Positions 11,924 through 48,346 of a stretch of DNA of 48,940 nt are shown piece by piece. The notes under the pieces were generated by a model. That model did no database searches. It was not told the DNA's origin and worked only from the letters and a program-made list of their open reading frames with translations. Positions within the stretch are counted from its first letter, which is position 1; the number at the start of each line of letters is the position of its first letter. The translations under genes and the position numbers were made by a program. The stretch is taken from the NCBI GenBank assembly GCA_027923505.1, contig BROI01000022.1:620001-668940 (forward strand), written 5' to 3'. The DNA comes from Mayamaea pseudoterrestris. Taxonomy: Eukaryota.

Positions 11924-12164
11924 GCACGCAATGTCGAGCCATCATGCTGAGGAAGATTAATGTCATGTCTTAGCGGTTCTTTTCAAGTACCGAACGGACA
12001 CAACGTGACAGAAAATGCGCCTCGCCTCGTTCTTTCCTCCGATCTTCCATCCACATCCCGCGACCTTCCATCCTCTTCCATCATGTAATTATTCACGCTG
12101 CGCCGAGACGAGCATCAAGCCGACTGCTCTTTCCAAAAGTTTATTGGTTGTGAGGAAAAGTGTC

Positions 12165-23600: not shown

Positions 23601-24582
23601 ATTGGAATGGGCAGTGTAAGTTTATTCTGGCTCGGGTCCTCCACTGCCATGCATTATCTGACAAGCCTTATTTTTTGTTATACAGATGGATGAGATGGAT
23701 ATGTTTCTTTCTGCCGACACTGACCAAACAGATCGAGTTTTGAAGATGGCTGGATCATTTTCTTTATCGCCCAAGAACGTGCGACGGCCCGAACCGGAAA
23801 TGTCACGGCCGGCTCCGGAGCCTCCACTCAAGTTCCATCTCGTCACTGCTGACAGTCATGGAGGATACAACATGATATTTTCTCAGCGTCAAATCAATCA
23901 TCTGCGGCGAGTCTTACAAGAGAGTGGGCTGCTAGATGTAACCATTGAACAAGTCTGTCGTGTTGTACTTGCCAGAGCATCAGGCGCTCGAGATGCTGAC
24001 CCTCGTATCTCCCAGCAACATTATGATTCAGCCATGATTAGCATGCTGAAATGGAAATCCAACGCGTCGACCGAAACCAAAAGATCGATGATCGGCATGC
24101 TGGAGGAAGTTTTCGCATGCTTTATTGGCGACGGGAACTTGGACCCCAGTGCAGCTGAAGTTGCTTGCGGCATTACTGTCTTTTGCCAAGGCAAGAAGAG
24201 TGACAAGCTTGAGCATGCCTTTGAACTGCTAGACCAGAAACGACGTGGAAAGCTTTCCAAAAAGGAACTGGTCAGATATTTCCAATCTTTTCTTACCGTC
24301 TTGCTTGGTATATCTGTATGTTCGTGTCTCGATTCCGACCTGACGACAGATTCGTTGCAAACGCTTCGAGGCGCCAAAGTCGAGCAATCGCCAAGTGCCG
24401 TTGCTCGCGCCGCCAAAACTGGCGCCGAGTGGACCGCCAATCTCATCTTTCAAGAGCTACAAAAGGCTACCAGTGCTTTACTGTCATTTGACGACTTTGC
24501 CTCTTGGTATACAACAAAGGGACATGTCAGCATGCCTTGGCTGGAGTTGATCGACCTGCGAAAGTGGGTCTTGCAAGTGTAG
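20679..24582 (+). CDS. Large EF-hand protein with four repeated NCS/calcineurin-B-like modules; exons 20679-23615, 23686-24582
   Basis: Repeated GxKSxKLxxAFxLLD...F(D/E)xFxxWY...PWLELLDLxKW modules. Phase-0 70-bp intron at 23616-23685 (GTAAGT...TACAG). The start codon is uncertain. Confidence 0.75.
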
Positions 24583-24847: not shown

Positions 24848-25858
24848 ATGTCGAACAAAACTGGATGGTAAGAAGTATAGATGAAGTTAATAGTAACTGT
24901 GAACGAGTGCGTAGTTGTCAGATTTCGCTCATTCTTGCGATGCGAACACAAAACGGAGTGCTGCGGCCACGAAGGCTTTAAACATCTACTGATATTGTAA
25001 TCGCTTGAATCGTTGTCTAAAACCTTGAACTCTCATTCAAATTTAGCATGTGCTGCGCCTACGGGCCGCTCACTACCTTTCCAGCCATTGTTTCCTTCTT
25101 TGCGACCATTTTGACCTACAGCGCCGCCTTTGGATGCTCGCTCTTCACGTCGGGCAACAACCAGGCATCTGTTGGATCATGGGGATTGTGGACGGTGGAA
25201 GGTCGTCAGATCAATTTGGAGCTTGATGCCACTTTGTATGACTATGTCTGCTACAGCTACGCGCAAGTCGTTCCATTTGGCGATCCGAGTGCGTTTCTGG
25301 ATGCTCCAATGAAGGCAGGTCGGGCGTTCTCTGCCATTGCAGCTACTTTAGCGGGTCCATTGTGGGTGACAATCATGATGCTGTGCTGCGTGAACTTTGG
25401 AAACAATAGAGTTATCTTCAAAGTTATCAGTCTTTGGTGTGTGTTTGTTGGAGTCATGATTTTGCTTGAACTGGTACGTGACGACGCACTGTGATGTATC
25501 TGCTTTAAAAATTCAAAGCTGACGACGAAACCTTTTCATTCTCTAGGCTGGAATGGCATCAAAGTTTTGCAAGGATCAAGTTCAGTGCAAGATTGGATCG
25601 GCTGGCATTTTAGCAATCGTGTCGTTCTTCCTTTGGTTATTGACAGCCTTGCTCGTTGCGACCATGAACCAGGAGCCTCGAGCGCTAGCAGGCGATGCTT
25701 CCTTTGATAACCAGCCAAAAGAGGTGGTGGTGGAAACCAAGACTCGCAACCCCGATGGAACTGTCACTGTGACGACGCGCAAGACTATCACGCACGCGGA
25801 CGGAAGCAAGGAAGTGATCGAATCGAGCGACATTGAGGCCACGGGTGTAAAAATGTGA
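24848..25858 (+). CDS. Claudin-like four-TM membrane protein, paralogue 1; exons 24848-24867, 25047-25473, 25547-25858
   Basis: Four hydrophobic helices, WGLW..C loop motif and a Thr-rich tail with NPDGT/ADGS turns. Introns TG|GTAAGA...TTTAG (24868-25046) and GTACGT...CTCTAG (25474-25546). Confidence 0.75.
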
Positions 25859-26402: not shown

Positions 26403-27443
26403 ATGGGTTGTTTTAAGGCATGGTAAGAGCTGCTTGCGCCATGAAAGATGGGAGCCAATGCTCTGTGTAGGAGTAGTCGCCGTTTGCTTCTCGTGCATGT
26501 GGCCCGAGAATACTCGAATATCTTTCATACTTGATACGACCTTTGACCTCAATAGGCTGACACTTTCTGTTCTTTAGCGTCTGCTGCGCTTACGGGCCCT
26601 GGATAGTGCTTCCAGCCATCCTGGCACTCATTTCTGCCACATTGACCTACACCGCGGTTTTTGGATGCAGCTTGTTTACGAGCACGGACGATGATACCTT
26701 TACCACGTCTGGCCTTTGGACAACGCAGGCGGCGACGTATGTAACGGATGATATCTTTGTCCTTAGCTGCCTTCCTTACGATCAAGTTTTCTACAATGGA
26801 GTTGCGCCTTTTATCATGGATGCATCGCTGAAAGCCGGAAGGGTGTTTGGCGCCATGGCCGCGACGCTTGCCGGGCCTCTGTGGATCGTTGTCATGTTGC
26901 TCTGCTGCATGAACTTTGGCAGAAGCAAGATAATCTTTTGGGTCATCATGGCACTTTGTGTAGTCCTTGCGGTTCTCATGTTGCTGATGCTGGTGAGTGC
27001 ATTCGGACTAGACGAGTTTGGCTTGAAATATCCTCTGCAAAACAGTAAACATTTACATGTACTTCTTCTTTTTTGCGCTTCAGGCCGGTATGGGCACAAC
27101 GTACTGCCAGGATGCTGCTTCTTGCAAAATCGGAGCCACAGGTATTCTGGCCATTATTTCATTCTTCCTCTGGCTGTTGACTGCATTCACCGTGGCACTG
27201 GTCATGAAGAAGGAACCTAGGACGCGATCGCCCGCCAGTCGAAGCTTGAAGCAGCAGCCAAGCAATGTAGAGACGACCGAGACGAGCACTACAAACCCCG
27301 ATGGAACGATTTCAGTGGTGACGCGCACAACAACGATGCATCCCGATGGAAGCAAGGAAGTAAAGGAGACGACTTCGATCAAGCCTGGGGCGACCAAGGA
27401 AGGTGCCATTGACTCTACAGAGACCAGCAACGGAGAGCCGTAA
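26403..27443 (+). CDS. Claudin-like four-TM membrane protein, paralogue 2; exons 26403-26422, 26578-26992, 27084-27443
   Basis: Clear homology to paralogue 1 (CCAYGP, FGCSLFTS, GLWT, KAGR.F.A.AATLAGPLW, CKIG..GILAI.SFFLWLLTA) with the same intron positions and phases. N-terminus is MGCFKACVCC. Confidence 0.75.
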
Positions 27444-27890: not shown

Positions 27891-28478
27891 AAAAGGGTCA
27901 AGGTTTTTGAAAATTGATCTTACTGGATGAAGATATGAAGCTGCCAAGAGATTTGTCTCGCATTTCGCGTTTCGCCGTCTTTCATCCACTTTAAATGGAA
28001 GTGGTTTAGCATCCGTAAGAAGCTTCAACATATATTAACAACTTTAATCAAGCATTTAACAAGCTATCCTACTGTATCATGGCTTCAGCGTACACATTGT
28101 TACGGACTAAATGGACTAATGGCATGTGTAGCGTCGTAGCGTCGCCATACCGCAACGGCGAAAAGGATGATGCAATGGCAAAGAGGCAAGTTAACATGAT
28201 GAGCAACGTGCGAACCATTATGACGAGTAATACAAGCGCAGTCTGTGCAGCTGATCGTTTTTCGTTGCGCTGGAGATGAAAGATTGGAAAAGCCGATCAT
28301 GTCAAAACCGCAGCGACACTGTTACAACTCATGACCCAATGGTCGCGCCATGGCGTGCGTTTTTCACCATCGACCATTGCGAAATCCATCCAACTTTCAT
28401 CCTCACTTTATTGATCCCGCCAACCTGTACCGGTAGCTAGGCGACTGTACAGAGCACTTCGACTTGACTCGTTACAAT

Positions 28479-29768
28479 ATGCACCGCCATACTCGGTGTC
28501 TGTCATGGTGGCTGGTGATCGCATTGACAATTGTCTCTGCTGTAACGGCAGAAGGAGAAACTGCATCATCGAGCGCATCGCCGCCAGCAGACTCCAGTAG
28601 TGAAGGAAACGCAGAGTCGACTCCACCAAAAAAAGCTGCTCGCACATATGACTTTGACATTGAAAATACAGACTGGGGTACCTATCATGATCCTCAAGGC
28701 GTCTTTTGCGGCAAGTATGACTGCTACAAGATTCTAGGATTTGACTACGAAAACTTTGGTTCTCCGCAACAAAAGATTATCACGCAACACTATCGATCAC
28801 TTTCGCGCCACTGGCATCCCGACAAGTCGAAACATCCCGAAGCCAAGGAACGTTTTGTCAAGATTGCCCGAGCCTACGAAGTCTTGAGCAATAGCGAACT
28901 GCGCAAAGACTACGATGATCTGCGATACGACCCGCAAAAGTACTACATGAAGCATGGTGCAAGCGTCTTGTGGAACTATGCGCCTCAAACCGATACTGCC
29001 GTTGTAATTATCATGCTGCTGCTAGTCGCCAACTTGTTTGCGTGGCTCGCACAAAAGCATCGCTGGCAGCAAGTGGCGGACCGACTCGTCAAGGCGGCGC
29101 TCGAAGACTGGACGCCCAGTCAAGGAGGTACGCCGGAGTCAAAGGAGCTGCGCGAGCATGCCATGCAAGTCTTGGAGGAGCGCGAGCAAGCTGCGGCTGC
29201 CAAGGAGGCGAGTGTGACGAATAAGACTGCTTCCGAAGCAGCAGCCACGCCTTCCAAGTCGACTGCCAGCGCCAAGAAGCAGACGAAGAAAGTGAAAGAC
29301 AAGCTTTCTGGTAAGGAGAGGAAGCAAAAGGAAATGGATGCATTGAAATCAATCATTGTCGAGATTGTTAGCGAGATGAGGGACTTTGGAGGTGGCTACC
29401 ACTTGCCAACCTGGCGTGACTTGCTGATTATATCCTTGCTCAAGTTTCCTTTTCGAGTCGTCAAGAATATGGCATGGTTGAGCACGTACTATGCTCGGCG
29501 GCTGCGGGGCCTGCCATTGAGTCACGACGAAAAGCGAGTCTTGACGGAGCGAGCAGTCGGACCCATTATCTGGGATACTTCATCCGATGAGCAACGCGAG
29601 GTACTTGTCAAGCGCGAGCTTTGGGTTGTTGCGAATCTGTCAGAGTGGTCCGAGGAACAAGACTATGAAAAGCTTAGTAACGGGGAGAAGAAGTTATTGA
29701 AAAAGATGAAAAAGAAAGGAATCAGAAACCCTGAAGGCGACATCAATGACTTGCTCAAGGAAGACTGA
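28479..29768 (+). CDS. DNAJC25: DnaJ-domain ER membrane co-chaperone, DNAJC25-like
   Basis: Signal peptide, FCGKYDCYKILG, a J-domain with WHPDK and KIARAYEVL, then YAPQTD followed by a TM helix. Confidence 0.85.
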   Translation: MHRHTRCLSWWLVIALTIVSAVTAEGETASSSASPPADSSSEGNAESTPPKKAARTYDFDIENTDWGTYHDPQGVFCGKYDCYKILGFDYENFGSPQQKIITQHYRSLSRHWHPDKSKHPEAKERFVKIARAYEVLSNSELRKDYDDLRYDPQKYYMKHGASVLWNYAPQTDTAVVIIMLLLVANLFAWLAQKHRWQQVADRLVKAALEDWTPSQGGTPESKELREHAMQVLEEREQAAAAKEASVTNKTASEAAATPSKSTASAKKQTKKVKDKLSGKERKQKEMDALKSIIVEIVSEMRDFGGGYHLPTWRDLLIISLLKFPFRVVKNMAWLSTYYARRLRGLPLSHDEKRVLTERAVGPIIWDTSSDEQREVLVKRELWVVANLSEWSEEQDYEKLSNGEKKLLKKMKKKGIRNPEGDINDLLKED

Positions 29769-29883
29769 TAGTTGTGGGCATTCATTCATAACCACAGGCT
29801 TGTGTAGCAGACCCTAAGCAAGATAGAAAAACTACAGTAAAGCGCATCTATGACTGTGCATCGTGCAAGTGTATTCTGTAGAG

Positions 29884-30740
29884 TATGGACATTTGAAAAT
29901 TATGGCATCTGCTGGCTGAGACCGGTGAGAACTTCTCACCAGTCCCATTGCATTCTACCAAGGGACCAGCCAGGCAATCCATCTTGTAGTGCACATGATA
30001 AAAGAATGTTAACACCATTCTGGCTTAATTTGGGCCTACACATGGCTCAAGGTATGGGCTATTGAATATCACAGCCAGCTGCTGTCCACAGAGACACTAG
30101 CTTGTCATCTTGTTTTGTGGCGCATCTGAAATAAGGATGTATTGTGACAGCCATGACTCATTAAACCCCGCCACCCCACCCAAGGGAACAAGTATTGAAC
30201 TAGTTTGCTTCGGGTCCTCAACAGCACTGCTTGATTTGGGCAGTCCACATGCCTAGAGAGACACTAGCTTGTCATCTTGTTTTGTGGCGCATCTGAAATA
30301 TGGATGTTAGCACCATTCTGGCTTGATTTGGGCATACACATGGCTCAAGGTATGGGCATTTGAAAATTACGGCATCTGCTGGCTGAGACTGATGAGAACT
30401 CCTCACCAGTCACATTGCAGTCAACCAAGGGGCAAGCCAGGCAATCTTCCATGTAGCAGACCTGAAATAAGGATGTTAGCACCATTCTGGCTTGATTTGG
30501 GCATACACATGGCTCAAGGTTTGGACATTTGCCAGTCACATTGCCGTCCACTGAGGGACCAGCCAAGCAATCCATCTTGTAGCGCACCTGAAATACGGAT
30601 GTTAGCACCATTCTGGCTTGATTTGGGCATGCACATGGCTCAAGGTATGAGCGTCTGACAATCATGGCACCTGCTGCTTGAGACTGGTGACAAGTTGTCA
30701 CCAATCACACTCATTGCAGTCCATAGAGACACTAGCCTGT
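29884..30740 (-). repeat. Degenerate copies of the 169-bp satellite A in inverted orientation
   Basis: Reads as the reverse complement of A (ggcatctgc.ggctgagac.ggtga.aa.tt.tcacc; ccatcttgtag.gca..tgaa; gatgttagcaccattctgg), with indels and an exact 44-bp duplication at 30090 and 30257. Confidence 0.85.
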
Positions 30741-30743
30741 GTA

Positions 30744-31811
30744 TGTGCGGAGTCTCATGGCAGAGGGATGGGCTTCACACCCAAGGTGACAAGCCTTTGC
30801 ATATTAATCCCTTAGAAAATGTATTTTCTTTGTATTCCCAGAATTGGCAGGCCATTCTGGCAGTCTGAAGTGCCACTTGAGGTGCACTGCTAGTAGATCC
30901 AACAAGTTGATGGATCTGCCGAGTCTCACCATGACATACATGGTGGTGGAGACTGGAATGGGTGGGTGCAACTGACCCAAGCATTGGCCCATCATGACAC
31001 CAAACATGAATTGAAATGGATTGGGGGGCTCAACAGGCAACAATGATGGTTTGTGTAGCCAAAAAGGGTGCACGGCTGGCACATTCAATAAATGGTTGAA
31101 TGTGCGGAGTCTCATGGCAAAGGGATGGGTTTCACACCCAAGGTGACAAGCCTTTGCGTATTAATCCCTTAAAAAATGTATATTCTTTGTATTCCTGAAC
31201 TGGCAGGCCATTCTGGCAGTCTGGAGTGCCACTTGAGGTGGGCTGCTAGCAGATCCCACAAGGTGTTGGATCTGCTGAGTCTCACCATGACATACATGGT
31301 GGTGGAGACTGGAATGGGTGGGTGCAACTGACCCAAGCATTGGCCCATCATGACACCAAACATGAATTGAAATGGATTGGGGGGCTCAACAGGCAACAAT
31401 GATGGTTTGTGTAGCCAAAAAGGGTGCACGGCTGGCACATTCAATAAATGGTTGAATGTGCGGAGTCTCATGGCAAAGGGATGGGTTTCACACCCAAGGT
31501 GACAAGCCTTTGCGTATTAATCCCTTAAAAAATGTATATTCTTTGTATTCCTGAACTGGCAGGCCATTCTGGCAGTCTGGAGTGCCACTTGAGGTGGGCT
31601 GCTAGCAGATCCCACAAGGTGTTGGATCTGCTGAGTCTTACCATGTCATACATGGTGGTGGAGACTGGAATGGGTGGGTGCAACTGACCCAATCATTGGC
31701 CCATCATGACACCAAACATGAATGGAAATGGATTGGGGGGCTCAACAGGCATGAATGATGGTTGGTGTAGCCAAAAAGGGTGCATGGGTGGCACATTCAA
31801 CAATTGGTTAA
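30744..31811 (+). repeat. Satellite B (356-357 bp), ~3 copies
   Basis: tgtgcggagtctcatggca recurs at 30744, 31101 and 31457. Confidence 0.95.
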
Positions 31812-33430
31812 AGGCACCTACAGCAAGCCCTGTAGGTGCCCACATTACACCAGAATGGTGCCAACATCATTATTCAGGCTGCGCTACAACATGGTAGGCT
31901 TGGCAGGTGTCTCAGGGAATGGCAATGTATTTGGTGAAAACTTGCCACCAGTCTCAGCCCACAGATGCCATGACATTCAAACGCCCCTACAGCAAGCCCT
32001 GTAGGCGCCCACATTACACCAGAATGGTGCCAGCATCATTATACAGGCTGCGCTACAAGATGGTAGGCTTGGCGGGTGTCTCAGGGAATGGCAATGTATT
32101 TGGTGACAACTTGTCACCAGTCTCACCCCACAGATGTTGTGAGATTCAAACGCCCCTACAGCCAGCCCTGTAGGTGCCCCCATTACATAAAAATGGTGCC
32201 AACATCATTATACAGGCTGCGCTACAAGATGGTAGGCTTGGCGGGTGTCTCAGGGAATGGCAATGTATTTGGTGACAACTTGTCACCAGTCTCAGCCCTC
32301 AGATGCCGTGACATTCAAACGCCCCTACAGCCAGCCCTGTAGGTGCCCAAATTACACCGGAATGGTGCCAACCCTCATTATTCAGGCTGCGCTACAAGAT
32401 GGTAGGCTTGGCGGGTGTCTCAGGGAATGGCAATGTATTTGGTGACAACTTGTCACCAGTCTCAGCCCCCAGATGCCTTGACATTCAAACTCCCCAACAG
32501 CAAGCCCTGTTGGTGCCCCCATTACACCAGAATGGTGCCAACATCATTATTCAGGCTGCGCTACAAGATGGTAGGCTTGGTGGGTGTCTCAGGGAATGGC
32601 AATGTATTTGGTGACAAATTGTCACCAGTCTCAGCCCGCAGATGCCGTGACATTCAAACGCCCCTACAGCAAGCCCTGTAGGTGCCCAAATTACACCAGA
32701 ATGGTGCCAACATCATTATTCAGGCTGCGCTACAAGATGGTAGGCTTGGCGGGTGTCTCAGGGAATGGCAATGTATTTGGTGACAACTTGTCACCAGTCT
32801 CAGCCCGCAGATGCCGTGACATTCAAACGCCCCTACAGCAAGCCCTGTAGGTGCCCCCATTACACCAGAATGGTGCCAACATCATTATGCAGGCTGCGCT
32901 ACAAGATGGTAGGCTTGGTGGGTGTTTCAGGGAATGGCAATGTATTTGGTGACAACTTGTCACCAGTCTCAGCCCGCAGATGCCGTGACATTCAAACGCC
33001 CTTACAGCAAGCACTGTAGGTGCCCAGATTACTCCAGAATGGTGCCAACATCATTATTCAGGCTGCGCTACAAGATGGTAGGCTTGGCGGGTGTCTCAGG
33101 GAATGGCAATGTATTTGGTGACAACTTGTCACCAGTCTCAGCCCGCAGATGCCTTGACATTCAAACGCCCCAACAGCAAGTCCTGTAGGTGCCACCATTA
33201 CACCAGAATGGTGCCAACATCAGTATTCAGGCTGCGCTACAAGATGGTAGGCTTGGTGGGTGTCTCAGGGAATGGCAATGTATTTGGTGACAACTTGTCA
33301 CCAGTCTCAGCCCGCAGATGTTGTGACATTCAAACGCACCTACAGCAAGCCCTGTAGGTGCCCCCATTACACCAGAATGGTGCCAACATCATTTTTAAGG
33401 CTGCGCTACAAGTTGGTACCATTGGTGGGT
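31812..33430 (+). repeat. Satellite A (169 bp), ~9.5 copies
   Basis: tggtgacaacttgtcaccagtctcag recurs every 169 bp, and the ORF track repeats with the same period. Confidence 0.97.
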
Positions 33431-34237
33431 GTTTGGCAGGCCATTCTGGCAGTCTGAAGTGCCACTTGAGGTGCACTGCTAGTAGATTCAACAAGGTGTT
33501 GGATCTGCTGAGTCTCACCATGACATACATGGTGGTGGAGACTGGAATGGGTGGGTGCAACTGACCCAAGCATTGGCCCATCATGACACCAAACATGAAG
33601 TAAAATGGATTGAGGGGCTCAACAGGCAAAAATGATGGTTCGTGTGGCCAAAAAGGGTACATGGCTGGCACATTCAACTAATGGTTGAATGTGCTGAGTC
33701 TCATGGCAAAGGGATGGGTTTCACACCCAAGGTGACAAGCCTTTGCGTACTAATCACCTAAAAAACAAATGCTCTTTGTATTTCAGAATTGGCAGGCCAT
33801 TCTGGCAGTCTGAAGTGCCACTTGAGGTGCACTGCTAGTAGATTCAACAATTTGTTGAATCTGCCGAGTCTCACCATGACATACATGGTGGTGGAGACTG
33901 GAATGGGTGGGTGCAACCAACCCAAGCATTGGCAAATCATGACACCAAACATGAATTGAAATGGATTGAGGGGCTCATCAGGCAACAATGAAGGTTCGTG
34001 TAGCCAAAAAGGGTGCACGGCTGGCACATTCAACCAATGGTTGAATGTGCGGAGTCTCATGGCAAATGGATGGGTTTCACACCCAAGGTGACAAGCCTTT
34101 GCGCTCTTTTTACTTAAAAAATGTATTTTCTTTGTATTCCAGAACTGGCAGGCTATTCTGGCAGTCTGAAGTGCTACTTGAGGTGCGCTGCTAGCAGATC
34201 CAACAAGGTGTTGGATCTGCCGAGTCTCACCATGACA
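33431..34237 (+). repeat. Satellite B, second block (~2.3 copies; last monomer interrupted, resumes at ~42244)
   Basis: Same sequence as 30744-31811. It stops at ...gagtctcaccatgaca. Confidence 0.93.
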
Positions 34238-37200
34238 AATTGTTGAATGTGCTAGCAGTGAGCCATGCTTTAACTACAGGATCATCAGCTTTGCCTGCTA
34301 AGAAATCCAACCCCTTTCAGTTAATGTTTGTTGACATTTTGATCCAATGCTGGGGTGACCATCACCCCAATATCCACCAGCCTGGCTGCCATGGTGAGAC
34401 TCAGCAGATCCAATAACTTGTTGGATCTGCCAGCAGTGCACCTCAGCTGGTACACAGACCGCCAGGATGGCCTGCAGACCCAAGAATATCAAAACCAAAA
34501 TACATATGATACAATTGGACCAATAGCCATGTCAATTGTGGTGTGGAACGCAGCATTGTGCCATGAGACTGCGCACATTCAACAAGTTGTTGAATGTACT
34601 TGCAGTGCACCCTTTTTGGTTATAGGATCATCAGCCTTGCCTGCTAAGCCATCCAACCCCTTTCCACTGATGTTTGTTAACATTTGATCCAATGCTGGAG
34701 TGACTATCACCCCAATATCCACCAGCCTGGCTGCCATGGTGCGAGTCAGCAGATCCAATAAGTTGTTCGATCTGCCAGTGGTGCACCTCAGCAGGTACAC
34801 AGACAGCAGAATGGCTTGCAGACCAAAGAATATTAAAACCATATTACATATAATACAATTGGACCAATAGTCATGTCAATTGTGGTGTGGAACGCAGCAT
34901 TGTGCCATGAGACTGCGCACATTCAACAAGTTGTTGAATGTGCTAGCAGTGCACCCTTTTTGGCTATAGGATCATCAGCCTTGCCTGCTAAGCCATCCAA
35001 CCCCTTTCCACTAATGTTTGTTGACATTTTGATCCAATGCTGGGGTGACTATCACCCCAATATCCACCAGCCTGGCTGCCATGGTGAGACCCGGCAGATC
35101 CAATAACTTGTTGGATCTGCCAGCAGTGCACCTCAGCTGGTACACAGACCGCCAGGATGGCCTGCAGACCCAAGAATATCATAACCAAAATACATATGAT
35201 ACAATTGGACCAATAGCCATGTCAATTGTGGTGTGGAACGCAGCATTGTGCCATGAGACTGCGCACATTCAACAAGTTGTTGAATGTGCTAGCAGTGCAC
35301 CCTTTTTGGCTATAGGATCATCAGCCTTGCCTGCTAAGCCATCCAACCCCTTTCCACTAATGTTTGTTGACATTTTGATCCAATGCTGGGGTGACTATCA
35401 CCCCAATATCCACCAGCCTGGCTGCCATGGTGAGACTCGGCAGATCCAATAACTTGTTGGATCTGCCAGTGGTGCACCTCAGCTGGTACACAGACAGCCA
35501 GAATGGCCTGCAGACCCAAGAATATCAAAACCAAAATACATATGATACAATTGGACCAATAGTCATGTCAATTGTGGTGTGGAACGCAGCATTGTGCCAC
35601 GAGACTGCGCACATTCAACAAGTTGTTGAATGTGCTAGCAGTGCACCCTTTTTGGCTATAGGATCATCAGCCTTGCCTGCTAAGCCATCCAACCCCTTTC
35701 CACTAATGTTTGTTGACATTTTGATCCAATGCTGGGGTGACTATCACCCCAATATCCACCAGCCTGGCTGCCATGGTGAGACTCGGCAGATCCAATAACT
35801 TGTTGGATCTGCCAGCAGTGCACCTCAGCTGGTACACAGACCACCAGGATGGCCTGCAGACCCAAGAATATCAAAACCAAAATACATATGATACAATTGG
35901 ACCAATAGTCATGTCAATTGTGGTGTGGAACGCAGCATTGTGCCATGAGACTGCGCACATTCAACAAGTTGTTGAATGTGCTAGCAGTGAGCCATGCTTT
36001 AACTACAGGATCATCAGCCTTGCCTGCTAAGCCATCCAACCCCTTTCCACTAATGTTTGTTGACATTTTGAGCCAATGCTGGGGTGACTATCACCCCAAT
36101 ATCCACCAGCCTGGCTGCCATGGTAAGACTCGGCAGATCCAATAAGTTGTTGCATCTGCCAGCGGTGCACCTCAGCTGGTACACAGACAGCCAGAATGGC
36201 CTGCAGACCCAAGAATATCAAAACCAAAATACATATGATACAATTGGACCAATAGTCATGTCAATTGTGGTGTGGAACGCAGCATTGTGCCATGAGACTG
36301 CGCACATTCAACAAGTTGTTGAATGTGCTAGCAGTGCACCCTCTTTGGCTATAGGATCATCAGCCTTGCCTGCTAAGCCATCCAACCCCTTTCCACTAAT
36401 GTTTGTTGACATTTTGATCCAATGCTGGGGTGACTATCACCCCAATATCCACCAGCCTGGCTGCCATGGTGAGACCTGGCAGATCCAATAACTTGTTGGA
36501 TCTGCCAGCAGTGCACCTCAGCTGGTACACAGACAGCCAGAATGGCCTGCAGACCCAAGAATATCAAAACCAAAATACATATGATACAATTGGACCAATA
36601 GTCATGTCAATTGTGGTGTGGAACGCAGCATTGTGCCATGAGACTGCGCACATTCAACAAGTTGTTGAATGTGCTAGCAGTGCACCCTTTTGGCTATAGG
36701 ATCATCAGCCTTGCCTGCTAAGCCATCCAACCCCTTTCCACTAATGTTTGTTGACATTTTGAGCCAATGCTGGAGTGACTATCACCCCAATATCCACCAG
36801 CCTGGCTGCCATGGTGAGACTCGGCAGATCCAATAAGTTGTTGGATCTGCCAGTGGTGCACCTCAGCTGGTACACAGACAGCCAGAATGGCCTGCAGACC
36901 CAAGAATATCAAAACCAAAATACATATGATACAATTGGACCAATAGTCATGTCAATTGTGGTGTGGAACGCAGCATTGTGCCATGAGACTGCGCACATTC
37001 AACAAGTTGTTGAATGTGCTAGCAGTGCACCCTTTTTGGCTATAGGATCATCAGCCTTGCCTGCTAAGCCATCCAACCCCTTTCCACTAATGTTTGTTGA
37101 CATTTTGAGCCAATGCTGGGGTGACTATCACCCCAATATCCACCAGCCTGGCTGCCATGGTGAGACTCGGCAGATCCAATAAGTTGTTGGATCTGCCAGC

Positions 37201-40200
37201 GGTGCACCTCAGCTGGTACACAGACTGCCAGGATGGCCTGCAGACCCAAGAATATCAAAACCAAAATACATATGATACAATTGGACCAATAGTCATGTCA
37301 ATTGTGGTGTGGAACGCAGCATTGTGCCATGAGACTGCGCACATTCAACAAGTTGTTGAATGTGCTAGCAGTGCACCCTTTTGGCTATAGGATCATCAGC
37401 CTTGCCTGCTAAGCCATCCAACCCCTTTCCACTAATGTTTGTTGACATTTTGATCCAATGCTGGGGTGACTATCACCCCAATATCCACCAGCCTGGCTGC
37501 CATGGTGAGACTCGGCAGATCCAATAACTTGTTGGATCTGCCAGCAGTGCACCTCAGCTGGTACACAGACCGCCAGGATGGCCTGCAGACCCAAGAATAT
37601 CAAAACCAAAATACATATGATACAATTGGACCAATAGTCATGTCAATTGTGGTGTGGAACGCAGCATTGTGCCATGAGACTGCGCACATTCAACAAGTTG
37701 TTGAATGTGCTAGCAGTGCACCCTTTTTGGCTATAGGATCATCAGCCTTGCCTGCTAAGCCATCCAACCCCTTTCCACTAATGTTTGTTGACATTTTGAG
37801 CCAATGCTGGGGTGACTATCACCCCAATATCCACCAGCCTGGCTGCCATGGTGAGACCTGGCAGATCCAATAACTTGTTGGATCTGCCAGCAGTGCACCT
37901 CAGCTGGTACACAGACAGCCAGAATGGCCTGCAGACCCAAGAATATCAAAACCAAAATACATATGATACAATTGGACCAATAGTCATGTCAATTGTGGTG
38001 TGGAACGCAGCATTGTGCCATGAGACTGCGCACATTCAACAAGTTGTTGAATGTGCTAGCAGTGAGCCATGCTTTGGGCTATAGGATCATCAGTCTTGCC
38101 TGCTAAGCCATCCAACCCCTTTCCACTAATGTTGGTTGACATTTTGAGCCAATGCTGGAGTGACTATCACCCCAATATGCACCAGCCTGGCTGCCATGGT
38201 GAGACTCGGCAGATCCAATAAGTTGTTGGATCTGTCAGTGGTGCACCTCAGCTGGTACACAGACAGCTAGAATGGCCTGCAGACCAAAGAATATCAAAAC
38301 CAAAATACATATGATACAATTGGACCAAAAGTCACGTCAATAGTGGTGCGGAACGCAGCATTATGCCATGAGACTGCGCACATTCAACAAGTTGTTGAAT
38401 GTGCTAGCAGTGAGCCATGCTTTAACTACAGGATCATCAGCCTTGCCTGCTAAGCCATCCAACCTGTTTCCACTAATGTTTGTTGACATTTTGAGCCAAT
38501 GCTGGGGTGACTATCACCCCAATATCCACCAGCCTGGCTGCCATGGTGAGACCTGGCAGATCCAATAACTTGTTGGATCTGCCAGCAGTGCACCTCAGCT
38601 GGTACACAGACCACCAGGATGGCCTGCAGACCCAAGAATATCAAAACCAAAATACATATGATACAATTGGACCAATAGTCATGTCAAATTTGGTGTGGAA
38701 CGCAGCATTGTGCCACGAGACTGCGCACATTCAACAAGTTGTTGAATGTGCTAGCAGTGCACCCTTTTTGGCTATAGGATCATCAGCCTTGCCTGCTAAG
38801 CCATCCAACCCCTTTCCACTAATGTTTGTTGACATTTTGAGCCAATGCTGGGGTGACTATCACCCCAATATCCACCAGCCTGGCTGCCATGGTGAGACTC
38901 GGCAGATCCAATAAGTTGTTGGATCTGCCAGTGGTGCACCTCAGCTGGTACACAGACAGCCAGAATGGCCTGCAGACCCAAGAATATCAAAACCAAAATA
39001 CATATGATACAATTGGACCAATAGTCACGTCAATTGTGGCGTGGAACACAGCATTGTGCCATGAGACTGCGCACATTCAACAAGTTGTCGAATGTGCTAG
39101 CAGTGAACCATGCTTTGGGCTACAGGATCATCCGCCTTGCCTGCTAAGCCATCTAACCCCTTTCCACTAATGTTGGTTAATATTTTGATCCAATGCTGGG
39201 GTGACTAACACCCCAATATCCACCAGCCTGTCTGCCATGGTGAGACGTGCCATGAGACTGCGCACATTCAACAAGTTGTTGAATGTGCTAGCAGTGCACC
39301 CTCTTTGGCTATAGGATCATCAGCCTTGCCTGCTAAGCCATCCAACCCCTTTCCACTAATGTTTGTTGACATTTTGATCCAATGCTGGGGTGACTATCAC
39401 CCCAATATCCACCAGCCTGGCTGCCATGGTGAGACCTGGCAGATCCAATAACTTGTTGGATCTGCCAGCAGTGCACCTCAGCTGGTACACAGACAGCCAG
39501 AATGGCCTGCAGACCCAAGAATATCAAAACCAAAATACATATGATACAATTGGACCAATAGTCATGTCAATTGTGGTGTGGAACGCAGCATTGTGCCATG
39601 AGACTGCGCACATTCAACAAGTTGTTGAATGTGCTAGCAGTGCACCCTTTTGGCTATAGGATCATCAGCCTTGCCTGCTAAGCCATCCAACCCCTTTCCA
39701 CTAATGTTTGTTGACATTTTGAGCCAATGCTGGAGTGACTATCACCCCAATATCCACCAGCCTGGCTGCCATGGTGAGACTCGGCAGATCCAATAAGTTG
39801 TTGGATCTGCCAGTGGTGCACCTCAGCTGGTACACAGACAGCCAGAATGGCCTGCAGACCCAAGAATATCAAAACCAAAATACATATGATACAATTGGAC
39901 CAATAGTCATGTCAATTGTGGTGTGGAACGCAGCATTGTGCCATGAGACTGCGCACATTCAACAAGTTGTTGAATGTGCTAGCAGTGCACCCTTTTTGGC
40001 TATAGGATCATCAGCCTTGCCTGCTAAGCCATCCAACCCCTTTCCACTAATGTTTGTTGACATTTTGAGCCAATGCTGGGGTGACTATCACCCCAATATC
40101 CACCAGCCTGGCTGCCATGGTGAGACTCGGCAGATCCAATAAGTTGTTGGATCTGCCAGCGGTGCACCTCAGCTGGTACACAGACTGCCAGGATGGCCTG

Positions 40201-42241
40201 CAGACCCAAGAATATCAAAACCAAAATACATATGATACAATTGGACCAATAGTCATGTCAATTGTGGTGTGGAACGCAGCATTGTGCCATGAGACTGCGC
40301 ACATTCAACAAGTTGTTGAATGTGCTAGCAGTGCACCCTTTTGGCTATAGGATCATCAGCCTTGCCTGCTAAGCCATCCAACCCCTTTCCACTAATGTTT
40401 GTTGACATTTTGATCCAATGCTGGGGTGACTATCACCCCAATATCCACCAGCCTGGCTGCCATGGTGAGACTCGGCAGATCCAATAACTTGTTGGATCTG
40501 CCAGCAGTGCACCTCAGCTGGTACACAGACCGCCAGGATGGCCTGCAGACCCAAGAATATCAAAACCAAAATACATATGATACAATTGGACCAATAGTCA
40601 TGTCAATTGTGGTGTGGAACGCAGCATTGTGCCATGAGACTGCGCACATTCAACAAGTTGTTGAATGTGCTAGCAGTGCACCCTTTTTGGCTATAGGATC
40701 ATCAGCCTTGCCTGCTAAGCCATCCAACCCCTTTCCACTAATGTTTGTTGACATTTTGAGCCAATGCTGGGGTGACTATCACCCCAATATCCACCAGCCT
40801 GGCTGCCATGGTGAGACCTGGCAGATCCAATAACTTGTTGGATCTGCCAGCAGTGCACCTCAGCTGGTACACAGACAGCCAGAATGGCCTGCAGACCCAA
40901 GAATATCAAAACCAAAATACATATGATACAATTGGACCAATAGTCATGTCAATTGTGGTGTGGAACGCAGCATTGTGCCATGAGACTGCGCACATTCAAC
41001 AAGTTGTTGAATGTGCTAGCAGTGAGCCATGCTTTGGGCTATAGGATCATCAGTCTTGCCTGCTAAGCCATCCAACCCCTTTCCACTAATGTTGGTTGAC
41101 ATTTTGAGCCAATGCTGGAGTGACTATCACCCCAATATGCACCAGCCTGGCTGCCATGGTGAGACTCGGCAGATCCAATAAGTTGTTGGATCTGTCAGTG
41201 GTGCACCTCAGCTGGTACACAGACAGCTAGAATGGCCTGCAGACCAAAGAATATCAAAACCAAAATACATATGATACAATTGGACCAAAAGTCACGTCAA
41301 TAGTGGTGCGGAACGCAGCATTATGCCATGAGACTGCGCACATTCAACAAGTTGTTGAATGTGCTAGCAGTGAGCCATGCTTTAACTACAGGATCATCAG
41401 CCTTGCCTGCTAAGCCATCCAACCTGTTTCCACTAATGTTTGTTGACATTTTGAGCCAATGCTGGGGTGACTATCACCCCAATATCCACCAGCCTGGCTG
41501 CCATGGTGAGACCTGGCAGATCCAATAACTTGTTGGATCTGCCAGCAGTGCACCTCAGCTGGTACACAGACCACCAGGATGGCCTGCAGACCCAAGAATA
41601 TCAAAACCAAAATACATATGATACAATTGGACCAATAGTCATGTCAAATTTGGTGTGGAACGCAGCATTGTGCCACGAGACTGCGCACATTCAACAAGTT
41701 GTTGAATGTGCTAGCAGTGCACCCTTTTTGGCTATAGGATCATCAGCCTTGCCTGCTAAGCCATCCAACCCCTTTCCACTAATGTTTGTTGACATTTTGA
41801 GCCAATGCTGGGGTGACTATCACCCCAATATCCACCAGCCTGGCTGCCATGGTGAGACTCGGCAGATCCAATAAGTTGTTGGATCTGCCAGTGGTGCACC
41901 TCAGCTGGTACACAGACAGCCAGAATGGCCTGCAGACCCAAGAATATCAAAACCAAAATACATATGATACAATTGGACCAATAGTCACGTCAATTGTGGC
42001 GTGGAACACAGCATTGTGCCATGAGACTGCGCACATTCAACAAGTTGTCGAATGTGCTAGCAGTGAACCATGCTTTGGGCTACAGGATCATCCGCCTTGC
42101 CTGCTAAGCCATCTAACCCCTTTCCACTAATGTTGGTTAATATTTTGATCCAATGCTGGGGTGACTAACACCCCAATATCCACCAGCCTGGCTGCCATGG
42201 TGAGACCTGGCAGATCCAGATCCAATAAGTTGTTGGATCTT
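34238..42241 (-). repeat. Satellite C (345-347 bp), ~23 copies; diverged reverse complement of B
   Basis: 346-bp period. catggtgagactcggcagatccaataacttgttggatctgccagcagtgcacctc is the near reverse complement of the B segment gaggtgcactgctagtagatccaacaagttgatggatctgccgagtctcaccatg. Confidence 0.95.
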
Positions 42242-42419
42242 TTACATGGTGATTCAGACTGGAATGGGTGGGTGCAACTGACCCAAGCATTGGCCCATCA
42301 TGACACCAAACATGAATTGAAATGGATTGGGGGGCTCAACAGGCAACAATGATGGTTTGTGTGGCCAAAAAGGGTGCATGGCTGGCACATTCAACCATTG
42401 GTTAAAGGCATTGGTTAAA
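42242..42419 (+). repeat. Remainder of the interrupted B monomer plus the B-to-A junction
   Basis: tacatggtg...gactggaatgggtgggtgcaactg...gcacattcaaccattggttaaaggca, with a short cattggttaaagg duplication. Confidence 0.9.
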
Positions 42420-45400
42420 GGCACCTACAGCAAGCCCTGTAGGTGCCCCTATTACACCAGAATGATGCCAACATCATTATTCAGGCTGCGCTACAAGATG
42501 GTAGGCTTGGCGGGTGTCTCAGGGAATGGCAATGTATTTGGTGACAACTTGTCACCAGTCTCAGCCCGCAGATGCCGTGACATTCAAACGCCCCAACAGC
42601 AAGCCCTGTAGGTGCCCCCATTACACCAGAATGGTGCCAACATCATTATTCAGGCTGCGCTACAAGATGGTAGGCTTGGCGGGTGTCTCAGGGAATGGCA
42701 ATGTATTTGGTGACAACTTGTCACCAGTCTCAGCCCGCAGATGCCGTGACATTCAAACGCCCCTACAGCAAGCCCTGTAGGTGCCCAAATTACACCAGAA
42801 TGGTGCCAACATCATTATTCAGGCTGCGCTACAAGATGGTAGGCTTGGCGGGTGTCTCAGGGAATGGCAATGTATTTGGTGACAAGTTGTCACCAGTCTC
42901 AGCCCGCAGATGCCGTGACATTCAAACGCACCTACAGCAAGCCCTGTAGGTGCCCAAATTACACCAGAATGGTGCCAACATCATTATTCAGGCTGCGCTA
43001 CAAGATGGTAGGCTTGGCGGGTGTAACAGGGCATGGCAATGTATTTGGTGACAACTTGTCACCAGTCTCAGCCCGCAGATGCCGTGACATTCAAACGCCC
43101 CAACAGCAAGCCCTGTAGGTGCCCCCATTACACCAGAATGGTGCCAACATCATTATTCAGGCTGCGCTACAAGATGGTAGGCTTGGTGGGTGTCTCAGGG
43201 AATGGCAATGTATTTGGTGACAACTTGTCACCAGTCTCAGCCCGCAGATGCCGTGACATTCAAACGCACCTACAGCAAGCCCTGTAGGTGCCCAGATTAC
43301 ACCAGAATGGTGCCAACATCATTATTCAGGCTGCGCTACAAGATGGTAGGCTTGGCGGGTGTCTCAGGGAATGGCAATGTATTTGGTGACAACTTGTCAC
43401 CAGTCTCAGCCCGCAGATGCCGTGACATTCAAACGCCCCAACAGCAAGCCCTGTAGGTGCCCCCATTACACCAGAATGGTGCCAACATCATTATTCAGGC
43501 TGCGCTACAAGATGGCAGGCTTGGCGGGTGTCTCAGGGAATGGCAATGTATTTGGTGACAACTTGTCACCAGTCTCAGCCCGCAGATGCCATGACATTCA
43601 AATGCCCCAACAGCAAGCCCTGTAGATGCCCAGATTACTCCAGAATGGTGCCAACATCATTATTCAGGCTGCGCTACAAGATGGTAGGCTTGGCGGGTGT
43701 CTCAGGGAATGGCAATGTATTTGGTGACAACTTGTCACCAGTCTCAGCCCGCAGATGCCGTGACATTCAAACGCCCCAACAGCAAGCCCTGTAGGTGCCC
43801 AAATTACACCAGAATGGTGCCAACATCATTATTCAGGCTGCGCTACAAGATGGTAGGCTTGGTGGGTGTCTCAGGGAATGGCAATGTATTTGGTGACAAC
43901 TTGTCACCAGTCTCAGCCCGCAGATGCCGTGACATTCAAACGCACCTACAGCAAGCCCTGTAGGTGCCCAAATTACACCAGAATGGTGCCAACATCATTA
44001 TTCAGGCTGCGCTACAAGATGGTAGGCTTGGCGGGTGTCTCAGGGAATGGCAATGTATTTGGTGACAACTTGTCACCAGTCTCAGCCCGCAGATGCTGTG
44101 ACATTCAAACGCCCTAACAGCAAGCCCTGTAGGTGCCCCCATTACACCAGAATGGTGCCAACATCATGTCTCAGGGAAAGGCAATGTATTTGGTGACAAC
44201 TTGTCACCAGTCTCAGCCCGCAGATGCCATGACATTCAAACGCACCTACAGCAAGCCCTGTAGGTGACCAAATTACACCAGAATGGTGCCAACATCATTA
44301 TTCCGGCTGCGCTACAAGATGGTAGGCTTGGCGGGTGTCTCAGGGAATGGCAATGTATTTGGTGACAACTTGTCACCAGTCTCAGCCCGCAGATGCCGTG
44401 ACATTCAAACGCCCCAACAGCAAGCCCTGTAGGTGCCCCCATTACACCAGAATGGTGCCAACATCATTATTCAGGCTGCGCTACAAGATGGTAGGCTTGG
44501 CGGGTGTCTCAGGGAATGGCAATGTATTTGGTGACAACTTGTCACCAGTCTCAGCCCGCAGATGCCGTGACATTCAAACGCACCTACAGCAAGCCCTGTA
44601 GGTGCCCAGATTACTCCAGAATGGTGCCAACATCATTATTCAGGCTGCGCTACAAGATGGCAGGCTTGGCGGGTGTCTCAGGGAATGGCAATGTATTTGG
44701 TGACAACTTGTCACCAGTCTCAGCCCGCAGATGCCGTGACATTCAAATGCCCCAACAGCAAGCCCTGTAGATGCCCAGATTACTCCAGAATGGTGCCAAC
44801 ATCATTATTCAGGCTGCGCTACAAGATGGTAGGCTTGGCGGGTGTCTCAGGGAATGGCAATGTATTTGGTGACAACTTGTCACCAGTCTCAGCCCGCAGA
44901 TGCCGTGACATTCAAACGCCCCTACAGCAAGCCCTGTAGGTGCCCAAATTACACCAGAATGGTGCCAACATCATTATTCAGGCTGCGCTACAAGATGGTA
45001 GGCTTGGCGGGTGTCTCAGGGAATGGCAATGTATTTGGTGACAACTTGTCACCAGTCTCAGCCCGCAGATGCCGTGACATTCAAACGCCCCAACAGCAAG
45101 CCCTGTAGGTGCCCCCATTACACCAGAATGGTGCCAACATCATTATTCAGGCTGCGCTACAAGATGGTAGGCTTGGCGGGTGTCTCAGGGAATGGCAATG
45201 TATTTGGTGACAACTTGTCACCAGTCTCAGCCCGCAGATGCCGTGACATTCAAACGCCCCTACAGCAAGCCCTGTAGGTGCCCAAATCACACCAGAAATG
45301 GTGCCAATTTCATTATTCAGGCTGCGCTACAAGATGGTAGGCTTGGCGGGTGTCTCAGGAAATGGCGATGTATTTGGTGACAACTTGTCACCAGTCTCAG

Positions 45401-45738
45401 CCCGCAGATGCCGTGACATTCAAACGCCCCAACAGCAAGCCCTGTAGGTGCCCAGATTACTCCAGAATGGTGCCAACATCATTATTCAGGCTGCGCTACA
45501 AGATGGTAGGCTTGGCGGGTGTCTCAGGGAATGGCAATGTATTTGGTGACAACTTGTCACCAGTCTCAGCCCGCAGATGCCGTGACATTCAAACGCCCCA
45601 ACAGCAAGCCCTGTAGGTGCCCCCATTACACCAGAATGGTGCCAACATCATTATTCAGGCTGCGCTACAAGATGGTAGCAATGGTGGGTGTCTCAGGGAA
45701 TGGCAATGTATTTGGTGACAAGTTGTCACCAGTCTCAG
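42420..45738 (+). repeat. Satellite A (169 bp), ~20 copies, one with a 38-bp deletion near 44167
   Basis: 169-bp period. The array ends abruptly after the hairpin + gtctcag at 45738. Confidence 0.97.
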
Positions 45739-46789
45739 TCGTTGTCGTAGTGCATACGCCTGGCGTTCGTCCAAAGCCGAAGGGCCGAATCACGGGCAGT
45801 CTTGTGGAGATTGCTCCTCGAATAGTCTTGCGCTCGTCACTCGACCATTGCTATCGTACCAAACTTGTAGTTCTAAATTGTGAGCTGGATCGCCGTCGCT
45901 ACAGACCGAACCATGGAAGCTAGCAATAGCTCCAGCAGGCGATGATTGTCGCTGCTGTTTGGCATGACTGTACTCAAGCTGCTCCAGCTGCTACTCCATG
46001 ATGTAAATGGGTGAACTTGGATGCCTGTATCATTCATTCGCTCCAAGCCTCGTCTTGAGGATGTTGTTCGCGTAATATCATGCAAATTGCGGTGCGCCGA
46101 CAAGGGTTCACGCTGCTGCTTGCTGCAATTAATTCTTCCAGCCATGCTGCTGCCAGTGCTGGTATTCGAGTATATCCACGGTCCCGCAACGAAACATTGC
46201 GCCAAAACTCCATAGTAGGACCGTTGCATCAAGCGATGTCTTAGTAGCAACGTAGCTGACGATAATGAATTAGAATTTGCTGCTTGAAGTGATGCTGTCA
46301 CGCCGCCGCATGAGGATCTCTTTCGATGAGCGTCAGAATGGGGTCTGATTGAGACGACTTTTGTAGCCCAATCAGTCCCAAAAAGAAGCATATTAGATGA
46401 GGACATGCTGGTTAAACTCAATCAGGCAGTCTGGTGACCCGCTCAGTCTATGAATGAGCAAGTGATGGAAGGATTCGCTGCTCGTCCATCCTTTTGACGC
46501 CGTGCCTCCGCGCCTTGCTGCGCGCACGCGACAGATGGACACTGCAAGCGCGAGTAAAAAGTAAAGCATGTCTGGCGCGAGCGCCGGCCGAGTCGATTTC
46601 ATCGCCAAATTCATCTTTTCCTCAACGCACACATGAAAACTTCCGCGACTCTCCAAAGCTTTGGCAAATGCAGTTCCACAATCCGGCCCTCTACTAGCTT
46701 GATACTTGCTACTTGCTACTCCAGACAGACTTAAACCCTCAATATAGATTGAGTCGCCGATTCTACCTATACATAAATTCGTTGCCACA

Positions 46790-48262: not shown

Positions 48263-48346
48263 GTTATGAGGGACTGTTTAACATAATTTATAGTAGTACG
48301 ATATTTGTTTGTCGATAAAATTAGCGACACACGATGTTGATGCAAA

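Follow-up and report, generated by a model that had tools for sequence, protein, structure and literature searches.

The CENP-B box is a conserved protein-binding box in satellites, and the holocentromere repeats of Meloidogyne reportedly carry a conserved box of 19 bp (PMC8097292). Many centromeric satellites are enriched in short dyad symmetries and are predicted to adopt non-B DNA (Kasinathan and Henikoff, 2018; PMC5889037). Tribolium madens has a ‘macro-dyad’ of the related satellites TmSat1 and TmSat2, which are intermingled in opposite sub-arrays with unchanged transition zones and intramonomer hairpins (PMC13081366). Template switching is reported to create and repair the stems of RNA genes in one step (Monttinen and Löytynoja, 2022; PMC8794818). 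Satellite DNA has hardly been described in diatoms and the two diatoms with mapped centromeres have none: the centromeres of Phaeodactylum and Fistulifera are short, at or below 32-42% guanine plus cytosine (GC) and without repeats (10.1101/096016; 10.1101/2021.11.10.468027). Here we describe a satellite block with palindromic boxes in a stretch of 48,940 nucleotides (nt) from the diatom Mayamaea pseudoterrestris (assembly GCA_027923505.1, contig BROI01000022.1, positions 620,001 to 668,940, forward strand). This whole stretch is called the window, and all coordinates are positions in it.

The satellite block (29884-45738) is built of four monomer families: A (169 bp), the diverged A-like D units, B (356 bp) and C (346 bp). 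The C family is the B family on the opposite strand (reverse complement), with an overall identity of 73% between the two. We propose, with a rough probability of 55%, that the hairpins in these monomers are dyad-symmetric boxes of a complex, CpG-depleted satellite and that the symmetry of their arms is mainly restored by mutation and not by selection on each pair. The boxes would act at the level of DNA and not of RNA. Dyad-symmetric satellite boxes are known as a kind and what is newly seen is their occurrence in a diatom. A literature search, whose range did not extend to subscription papers and supplements, turned up no account of satellite DNA in diatoms or of the box sequences reported here.

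Two Palindrome Types in the B and C Monomers

Scanning the window with a pattern for the B/C hairpin plus flanks returned 58 hits, 55 of them within 30893-42057 (10 in B and 45 in C), and the three outside this interval are spurious. Perfect short-loop stems of at least 8 bp number 264 in the window, of which 260 lie between 30 and 46 kb. The B/C monomer carries both a type-1 palindrome (GCACATTCAA..TTGAATGTGC) and a type-2 palindrome (GCAGATCCAA..TTGGATCTGC). The canonical C copy of type 1 is GCACATTCAACAA-G-TTGTTGAATGTGC (34917-34943, + strand), and 20 of the 23 type-1 copies in C have perfect 13-bp arms around a 1-nt centre. Type 2 in C has the form GCAGATCCAATAA-S-TTGTTGGATCTGC, with a T.G at pair 11 in 22 of 22 copies, and is represented by GCAGATCCAATAA-C-TTGTTGGATCTGC at 35094-35120 (+ strand). 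In B, the outer 10 bp are those of C and the centre is more variable. A sequence-only reading of the window had named the B/C loop as the most variable part of the hairpin, and the alignment of copies bears this out for the centre.

Both palindromes are embedded in a duplicated 48-bp block, TGAGACT-nn-(27-nt palindrome)-nAGCnGTGCACC, hereafter the box (length ~50 bp). The two halves of the C monomer are alike only in this block (Smith-Waterman z 15.7), the remainder being at noise level. Successive box centres are separated by 177 and 169 bp in C and by 186 and 170 bp in B, which is about the period of the 169-bp A monomer. Since each monomer holds two paralogous boxes, the 346/356-bp unit is in effect a dimer in which a box occurs every ~170-177 bp.

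The longest consensus stems of A, B and C (9, 11 and 13 bp) are equalled in no more than 0.5% of 1000 dinucleotide shuffles (P<=0.005), and the count of stems of at least 7 bp has a P of about 0.01 against the shuffles. Dyad symmetries are thus enriched over composition-matched shuffles in the sense of Kasinathan and Henikoff. Folded as single-stranded DNA, the 51-nt boxes reach -16.5 and -14.3 kcal/mol (z -6.4 and -5.2), while the fold z of whole monomers is -5.1 for C and only -0.5 for A. The scan counts, shuffles and fold scores together mean that the B/C hairpins are real and far beyond chance, and the hairpin sequences cited in the sequence-only reading are indeed present in the 55 array copies. 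That reading did not include the occurrence of both types in each B/C monomer within a duplicated 48-bp block, the inverted relation of C to B, or a second palindrome in A.

As in the satellites described in PMC5889037, the monomers are nucleosome-sized and in tandem, inverted repeats exceed those of permuted sequence, and hairpins or cruciforms are predicted. Unlike those satellites, whose dyads are <10 bp, the block has dyads of 9-13 bp, near-perfect palindromes of 27 nt, a conserved ~50-bp box and a diatom host.

Compensated Changes Between the Arms

For the comparison of arms 38 boxes were aligned, 17 from a near-identical 2.96-kb duplicate being left out, and 24 of the rows are distinct. 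Pairing is found in 94.2% of 312 stem cells and drops to 22-37% when the partner is slid by 1-3 columns. Changes on both sides occur in 3 of 13 pairs. Among the distinct boxes, pair 4 is G:C in 16 and C:G in 8, pair 7 is C:G in 13, U:A in 9 and unpaired in 2, and pair 12 is A:U in 21 and C:G in one. The split into type 1 and type 2 explains pairs 4 and 7 (C:G/G:C and T:A/C:G). Between the types there are five stem differences, two of which are fully compensated pairs; since at least two compensated pairs would arise from five random stem substitutions in a perfect palindrome with P=0.0029, the arms of B/C do not evolve independently.

Two single B copies supply two further compensated changes. 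Firstly, a type-2 copy at 33838-33864 (- strand) has T:A at pair 7 (GATT/AATC), and a half-changed intermediate of this form is found at 33482-33508. Secondly, a type-1 copy at 34024-34050 (- strand) has the inner arms CCA/TGG for CAA/TTG, with pair 12 compensated. The difference CATT/AATG versus GATC/GATC in the N4 segment of the arms, to which the sequence-only reading had pointed, is therefore real and compensated, with GATT/AATC as a third form. That reading had also claimed for all families that pairing is kept as the sequence drifts. For B/C this agrees with the compensated pairs and with the covariation score, which 0 of 500 shuffles reach in a control that ignores the relatedness of the rows; for A it does not hold, as 227 of 500 shuffles reach the observed score.

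If pairing were not maintained at all, the hairpins would be frozen accidents copied by array amplification and compensated by chance. Most copies are recent duplicates, including a 2.96-kb segment duplicated with one mismatch, only 24 of the 38 aligned boxes are distinct, and the A family is without covariation, all of which would fit. Chance does not easily give two compensated pairs among five stem differences (P=0.0029), however, nor the further compensated variants in B copies and between A and D palindromes. The stems of three families are moreover longer than those of at least 99.5% of shuffles, and stems differ by 7.7% between B and C, compared with 33% elsewhere. We disfavor this explanation, which is the least likely of those considered.

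The type of change is informative about its origin. About half of the independent compensated events are transversion swaps, and the swaps C:G to G:C (pair 4) and T:A to A:T have no wobble intermediate. Symmetry of the palindrome extends to the 1-nt centre, although the innermost pair is open in the predicted fold. Compensated variants sit in single monomers (33838, 34024 and 32491), and in a repeat that is probably high-copy, selection on one copy would be negligible; this argues for a mutational rather than a selective origin. The swaps without wobble, the symmetry up to an unpaired 1-nt centre and an exchange between box types (~39246) argue in the same direction. Template switching or conversion, which the sequence-only reading had mentioned as a neutral alternative, fits the single-monomer compensation, the swaps and the 1-nt centre better than selection on an RNA or cruciform stem.

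Under the mutational explanation, the palindrome arms would fold back on each other during replication, and symmetry would be restored by intrastrand template switching (quasi-palindrome correction) together with gene conversion or unequal exchange between paralogous boxes. The process reported in PMC8794818 is alike in that one arm is copied onto the other in one replication event, so that perfect stems and compensation by multi-base changes or transversions arise without selection. The genes studied there are RNA genes, whereas here the DNA is a non-coding satellite and the mechanism is deduced from the pattern.

A structured RNA transcribed from the satellite, with pairing of its stems under selection, was also considered. 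The T.G at pair 11 in all 22 C type-2 copies and a G.T at pair 1 in two would be legal G.U pairs on the + strand, and the predicted folds are strong. The pair-2 mismatch that recurs in B copies is a wobble on the opposite strand only, however, so that no strand is favored, and the compensations are largely transversion swaps and not transitions via G.U. Symmetry into a 1-nt loop, conservation of the box flanks as sequence and CpG depletion are likewise not what an RNA stem would lead one to expect. Rfam gave no match at gathering score in the whole window and none at E<=1 in 30300-35700. The RNA stems suggested in the sequence-only reading are thus unsupported and seem very unlikely.

Conservation of the Box

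Between B and C, 4 of 52 stem positions and 5 of 48 positions in the 12-nt hairpin flanks differ, whereas in the remainder of the monomer 85 of 257 do (Fisher 9e-5 and 1e-3). The divergence of the box is 8-10% versus 33% elsewhere, which makes it the slowest-diverging part of the repeat. Stems are not more conserved than their flanks in this comparison, which the sequence-only reading had put forward as a check of maintained pairing. The unit of conservation is the ~50-bp box and not pairing as such.

Variation within the C array was counted in 13 monomers outside the 2960-bp duplicate described below. Per column, the stems have 0.077 variant types, the box flanks 0.286 and the other positions 0.186. 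The stem variants that arose inside this array, four in 52 stem columns, are all singletons that break a pair, a further sign of a mutational rather than a selective origin. Across the boxes, several flank variants are CpG transitions (CAGCGG to CAGTGG or CAGCAG). In other repeat copies, among the 40 of 466 differences listed, the majority letter re-pairs the mismatches at 30894 (T>C), 31263 (G>T), 33496 (G>T) and 34598 (A>G); differences that do not re-pair a mismatch are found at 31090, 31448 (in the centre) and 34749 (in one contig).

The low rate at which the entire box diverges, together with its flanks, could result from an added constraint at the sequence level or from biased conversion. 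The likeliest reason would be that the box is a protein-binding site in heterochromatic or (peri)centromeric chromatin. It resembles the CENP-B box and the Meloidogyne box as a short segment, once per unit, that is far more conserved than the fast-evolving monomer around it. In contrast to both it is palindromic and about 50 bp long, and it is a putative binding site only. Among known factors, the spacing does not fit a heat-shock-factor or bZIP site when read by eye. An HMG/SOX-like site was considered for the ACAA/TTGT core and given no weight.

Selection could also account for the symmetry itself, if these were selected boxes of a (peri)centromeric satellite that act as an extruded cruciform or other non-B structure, or as the site of a dimeric protein in the manner of the CENP-B box. 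Between B and C the box, non-pairing flanks included, has changed 3-4 times less than the remaining monomer, and all families have one box per 169-186 bp. GTCTCA stands within 0-2 nt of the palindrome in A, D, B and C, the heptamer that contains it is nearly confined to the block, and the A and B/C palindromes have the core ACAA-S-TTGT in common. Dyads are enriched over shuffles as in many centromeric satellites (PMC5889037), and inverted sub-arrays with a repeated transition zone are like those of the Tribolium (peri)centromeric satellites (PMC13081366). On the other hand, selection would be blind to single monomers, and yet single copies are compensated. If one dimeric protein reads both types, symmetric change at positions that it does not contact is unexpected, and the A hairpin is free to decay. 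So far, the centromeres described in diatoms are short, low in GC and free of repeats (10.1101/096016; 10.1101/2021.11.10.468027), whereas the block has 36-60% GC. We consider selected centromeric boxes rather unlikely as the source of the symmetry.

The Palindromes of the A and D Families

The sequence-only reading had described the A hairpin from a copy at the B-to-A junction (31813-31840, + strand), which has a perfect 11-bp form. This copy is as described; the typical one is not perfect, as the A consensus is GCC-CCTACAG-CAAGCC-CTGTAGG-TGC with a C.T mismatch. The 7-bp stem is kept in 17 of 30 copies (in one of them with T.G replacing C:G), and 7 of these 17 are perfect over at least 10 bp. 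The only compensated A hairpin, CCAACAG/CTGTTGG, is found at 32491-32516 (+ strand; 1 of 30). Hairpins of A and B/C had been assigned to one architecture, GCA-N4-CAR, but this amounts to ~6 common letters. Because A monomers show no significant similarity to B/C monomers (Smith-Waterman z 0.0 to 1.7), one architecture is unsupported as homology.

The A monomer has a second palindrome, TGGTGACAA-C-TTGTCACCA, which precedes GTCTCA; with 28 of 29 copies perfect, it is better kept than the A hairpin. The D units contain the palindrome GGTGAGAA-S-TTCTCACC (29924-29940, from the palindrome list), and the comparison of A with D reveals another C:G to G:C swap (GACAA/TTGTC versus GAGAA/TTCTC). The core ACAA-S-TTGT is common to the A palindrome and the B/C palindromes. 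As a lead found post hoc, to which we attach at most moderate weight, TGGTGACAA-C-TTGTCACCA is a better candidate than the A hairpin for a box shared by A and B/C. By reading, the 28 nt of the D units that are equivalent to the A hairpin give just a shifted 5-bp stem, which was not counted as conservation.

In each of the families A, D, B and C, the heptamer AGTCTCA/TGAGACT was observed 0-2 nt from the main palindrome (for example at 32796-32802 and 34909-34915). In the window, 39 of 40 AGTCTCA and 35 of 37 TGAGACT occurrences are inside the block.

At 32680-32685, many contigs of runs X1, X2 and X4 diverge inside the A hairpin, with a different right arm and downstream sequence. This suggests that the genome contains another A subfamily at other sites, whose hairpin is mostly gone, with ~4 bp left (agreement 0.78).

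Junctions and the Inverted C Array

The 8-kb C array is inserted, in inverted orientation, into a B monomer between B consensus positions 175 (34237) and 176 (42243), without loss of B bases. The insertion point is the 5-nt loop of the third B hairpin, CACCATG-ACATA-CATGGTG, between ACA and TA. The insert starts at the centre of a type-1 palindrome with a 3-bp microhomology (34235-34245). Its other end falls 2 nt short of the end of a type-2 palindrome, and a 2-nt filler follows (42236-42245). No target-site duplication accompanies the insertion. Both the D-to-B and the B-to-A junction are located in the right arm of type 1, and the latter is unchanged at 31810 and 42417 (31790-31815 and 42395-42425), the second occurrence having a 13-bp tandem duplication, CATTGGTTAAAGG, at 42396-42423. 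The repeated B-to-A transition suggests a duplicated cassette of ~3 B monomers plus an A array.

The C array contains a segmental duplication of 2960 bp (36287-42206, + strand; copies at 36287-39246 and 39247-42206) with one mismatch in 2951 compared bases, which could be very recent or an assembly artefact. Its junction at ~39246-39250 is an unequal exchange between a type-2 and a type-1 box and leaves a 191-bp unit. On the B/C side, 5 of 7 breakpoints are in hairpins, which cover ~20% of the monomer (P=0.005 in a test that was chosen post hoc). The same tendency to fold back might make the boxes fragile, and array junctions as well as the 8-kb inverted insertion would then come to lie at hairpin loops.

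The arrangement is similar to the ‘macro-dyad’ of T. madens in its intermingled related satellites, opposite sub-arrays, unchanged transition zones and intramonomer hairpins. It differs from the megabases and symmetric inversion described for that species (PMC13081366) in that it is one 16-kb locus in which a 27%-diverged C array is inserted in a hairpin loop.

An insertion of this kind raises the question of whether sites of a mobile element or a site-specific enzyme built the arrays, such as a tyrosine-recombinase core, an HUH/rolling-circle nick site or Helitron-like ends. One 8-kb array was inserted as a block, the heptamer element GTCTCA is constant beside every palindrome, and some copies (B type 1, C type 2) have inverted arms of 10-11 bp with a 7-nt spacer. 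The microhomology, the filler and the lack of a target-site duplication resemble end joining or a replication template switch instead, and no recombinase, Rep or transposase domain was present among the 15 open reading frames (ORFs) submitted to Pfam. Such an origin appears very unlikely to us, about as much so as RNA stems. Core sites of tyrosine recombinases (loxP/FRT-like) consist of 11-13-bp inverted arms with an asymmetric spacer of 6-8 bp and come with a cognate recombinase. Here, 20 type-1 copies have a spacer of 1 nt, a length at odds with such a site, and only some copies have one of 7 nt; there was no integrase domain in the 15 ORFs. Helitrons have a 3' hairpin about 10 nt before CTRR, a 5' TC and RepHel in the family. 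By reading, the box flanks have no 5'-TC/3'-CTRR ends, and the 15 ORFs contain no Rep/helicase domain.

The bare palindrome matched four loci in viral contigs. These are single palindromes with unrelated flanks, sharing none with the satellite, and were taken as chance. Metagenome scans for the box pattern and for the A palindrome pattern gave 0 matches each.

Evaluation of the Proposed Mutational Correction

Several findings weigh against a mainly mutational maintenance of the arms. Firstly, the compensated changes go back to ~3-4 independent events among related copies, so that the shuffle controls overstate their significance. Secondly, the smaller number of stem variants compared with the rest in the C array is not significant (P 0.07-0.09), and for this reason rates alone cannot separate correction from selection. 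Thirdly, CCAACAG with an uncompensated A.A occurs in 12 of 30 A copies and is spread through A array 2, which means that correction of the arms is not efficient everywhere. The strong conservation of the box flanks is not predicted by pure template switching, and a second factor is needed. Lastly, when all breakpoints are taken together, including those on the A side (0 of 4), 5 of 11 are in hairpins (P=0.06).

Base Composition and Abundance

The observed/expected ratio of CpG is 0.18-0.40 in the arrays versus 1.01-1.05 in the flanking genes (1-29800 and 45739-48940), while that of GpC is similar in both (1.13-1.29 versus 1.25-1.26). A CpG deficit with unchanged GpC is the usual footprint of cytosine methylation, and these values suggest that the satellite DNA is silenced and methylated.

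The repeats are probably high-copy: in assembled sequence data, 75,110 of 555,133 contig records of run X1 and 36,507 of 560,787 of run X2, from a second study, were placed on 29500-35300. Summed depth in A bins is 10^3-10^4 times that of unique flank bins, a depth that is not a copy number. Contigs from two further organisms are also placed on the repeats (857 and 474). In runs X4 and X5 the unique flank at 29500-29887 is uncovered, from which no conclusion is drawn.

The block has 47-52% GC overall, with 36-60% per 100 bp. A Phaeodactylum-type centromere, with ~0.5-3 kb of 100-bp windows at <=32% GC and no repeats, is not what is found here: the minimum in the block is 36%, and none of the 57 such windows of the whole stretch (the first at 4403, the last at 48259) is in it. 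The locus shares the host group, diatoms, with the Phaeodactylum and Fistulifera centromeres (10.1101/096016; 10.1101/2021.11.10.468027), but it has 16 kb of tandem repeats at 47-52% GC.

Layout of the Satellite Block

The limits of the block were taken from Tandem Repeats Finder (TRF) arrays and, for the ends, from alignment to monomer consensus sequences. The block opens with the inverted D units (29884-30732, - strand), which were delimited by alignment to the reverse complement of the A consensus and within which TRF reported a 126-bp repeat at 30406-30646. B array 1 follows with three 356-bp monomers (30740-31812, - strand relative to the C orientation of the box; TRF and consensus alignment), and then A array 1 with 9.6 monomers of 169 bp (31810-33432, + strand; TRF and palindrome list). 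B array 2 comprises 2.3 monomers in its left part (33433-34237, - strand), which ends at B consensus position 175, and a right part (42243-42406, - strand) that restarts at position 176. Between them is the C array of ~23 monomers of 346 bp (34238-42240, + strand), and A array 2 with ~19.6 monomers closes the block (42417-45738, + strand), both placed by TRF and consensus alignment. At this one locus, B versus C and A versus D are in opposite orientation and the B-to-A junction is present twice.

The arrays are head-to-tail as expected of a satellite, with TRF periods of 169 bp (x9.6 and x~19.6), 356 bp (x3 and x2.3) and 346 bp (x~23) and regular anchor spacing. They are also non-coding: the repeat ORFs at 35045-35452 and 30804-31115 (135 and 103 aa) have no Pfam match, and the 346-bp period is not a multiple of three, so that the reading frame is broken in every unit.

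Flanking Genes

The DNA of the window is gene-dense, eukaryotic and diatom nuclear. Fifteen ORFs were submitted to Pfam, the longest of the window plus the two repeat ORFs, and the domains found in long ORFs are P-type ATPase, DUF819, ABC1 kinase, amino-acid kinase, EF-hand, DnaJ, TLDc and GHMP-kinase. A DnaJ-domain gene (28464-29768, + strand) precedes the block, and unannotated ORFs and a TLDc-domain gene (46790-48262, + strand) come after it. These flanking genes are eukaryotic and have diatom top matches. The closest named relatives of the ABC1 kinase ORF are from the raphid pennate diatoms Fistulifera, Nitzschia and Seminavis (53-60% identity), another relative has 73%, and in a feature search the ORF falls among eukaryotic ABC1 clusters.

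Five long flanking ORFs among the 15 submitted have no Pfam family. Four long ORFs without a Pfam match at E<=0.001 (524-1058 aa) are located at 2845-4419, 5705-8221, 12015-15191 and 20652-23693. Neighbouring ORF pairs at 25048-25858 and 26606-27443 are clearly similar small membrane-protein pieces, with FGCSLFTS and ILAI.SFFLWLLTA common to both, and look like a tandemly duplicated two-exon gene.

Implications

The locus exemplifies co-evolution of arms by transversion swaps and by compensation in single copies, and it presents a hairpin loop as the acceptor of an 8-kb inverted array. It bears on how far ‘compensatory’ changes prove selection on structure. For diatoms, a 169-bp satellite with conserved palindromic boxes is a candidate for repeat-based centromeres or heterochromatin in some species. 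In all four families the box (ACAA-S-TTGT palindrome plus GTCTCA) returns at intervals of ~170 bp with its outer arms replaced, and it is conceivable, though we hold it to be a speculative and decidedly improbable proposal, that the ~50-bp box would be a cis element that specifies a satellite-based centromere, recognized either in the form of extruded four-way DNA or by a dimeric protein that bends it. If true, this would be the first repeat-based centromere, defined by sequence or structure, in a group for which short, AT-rich and sequence-independent ones have been described.

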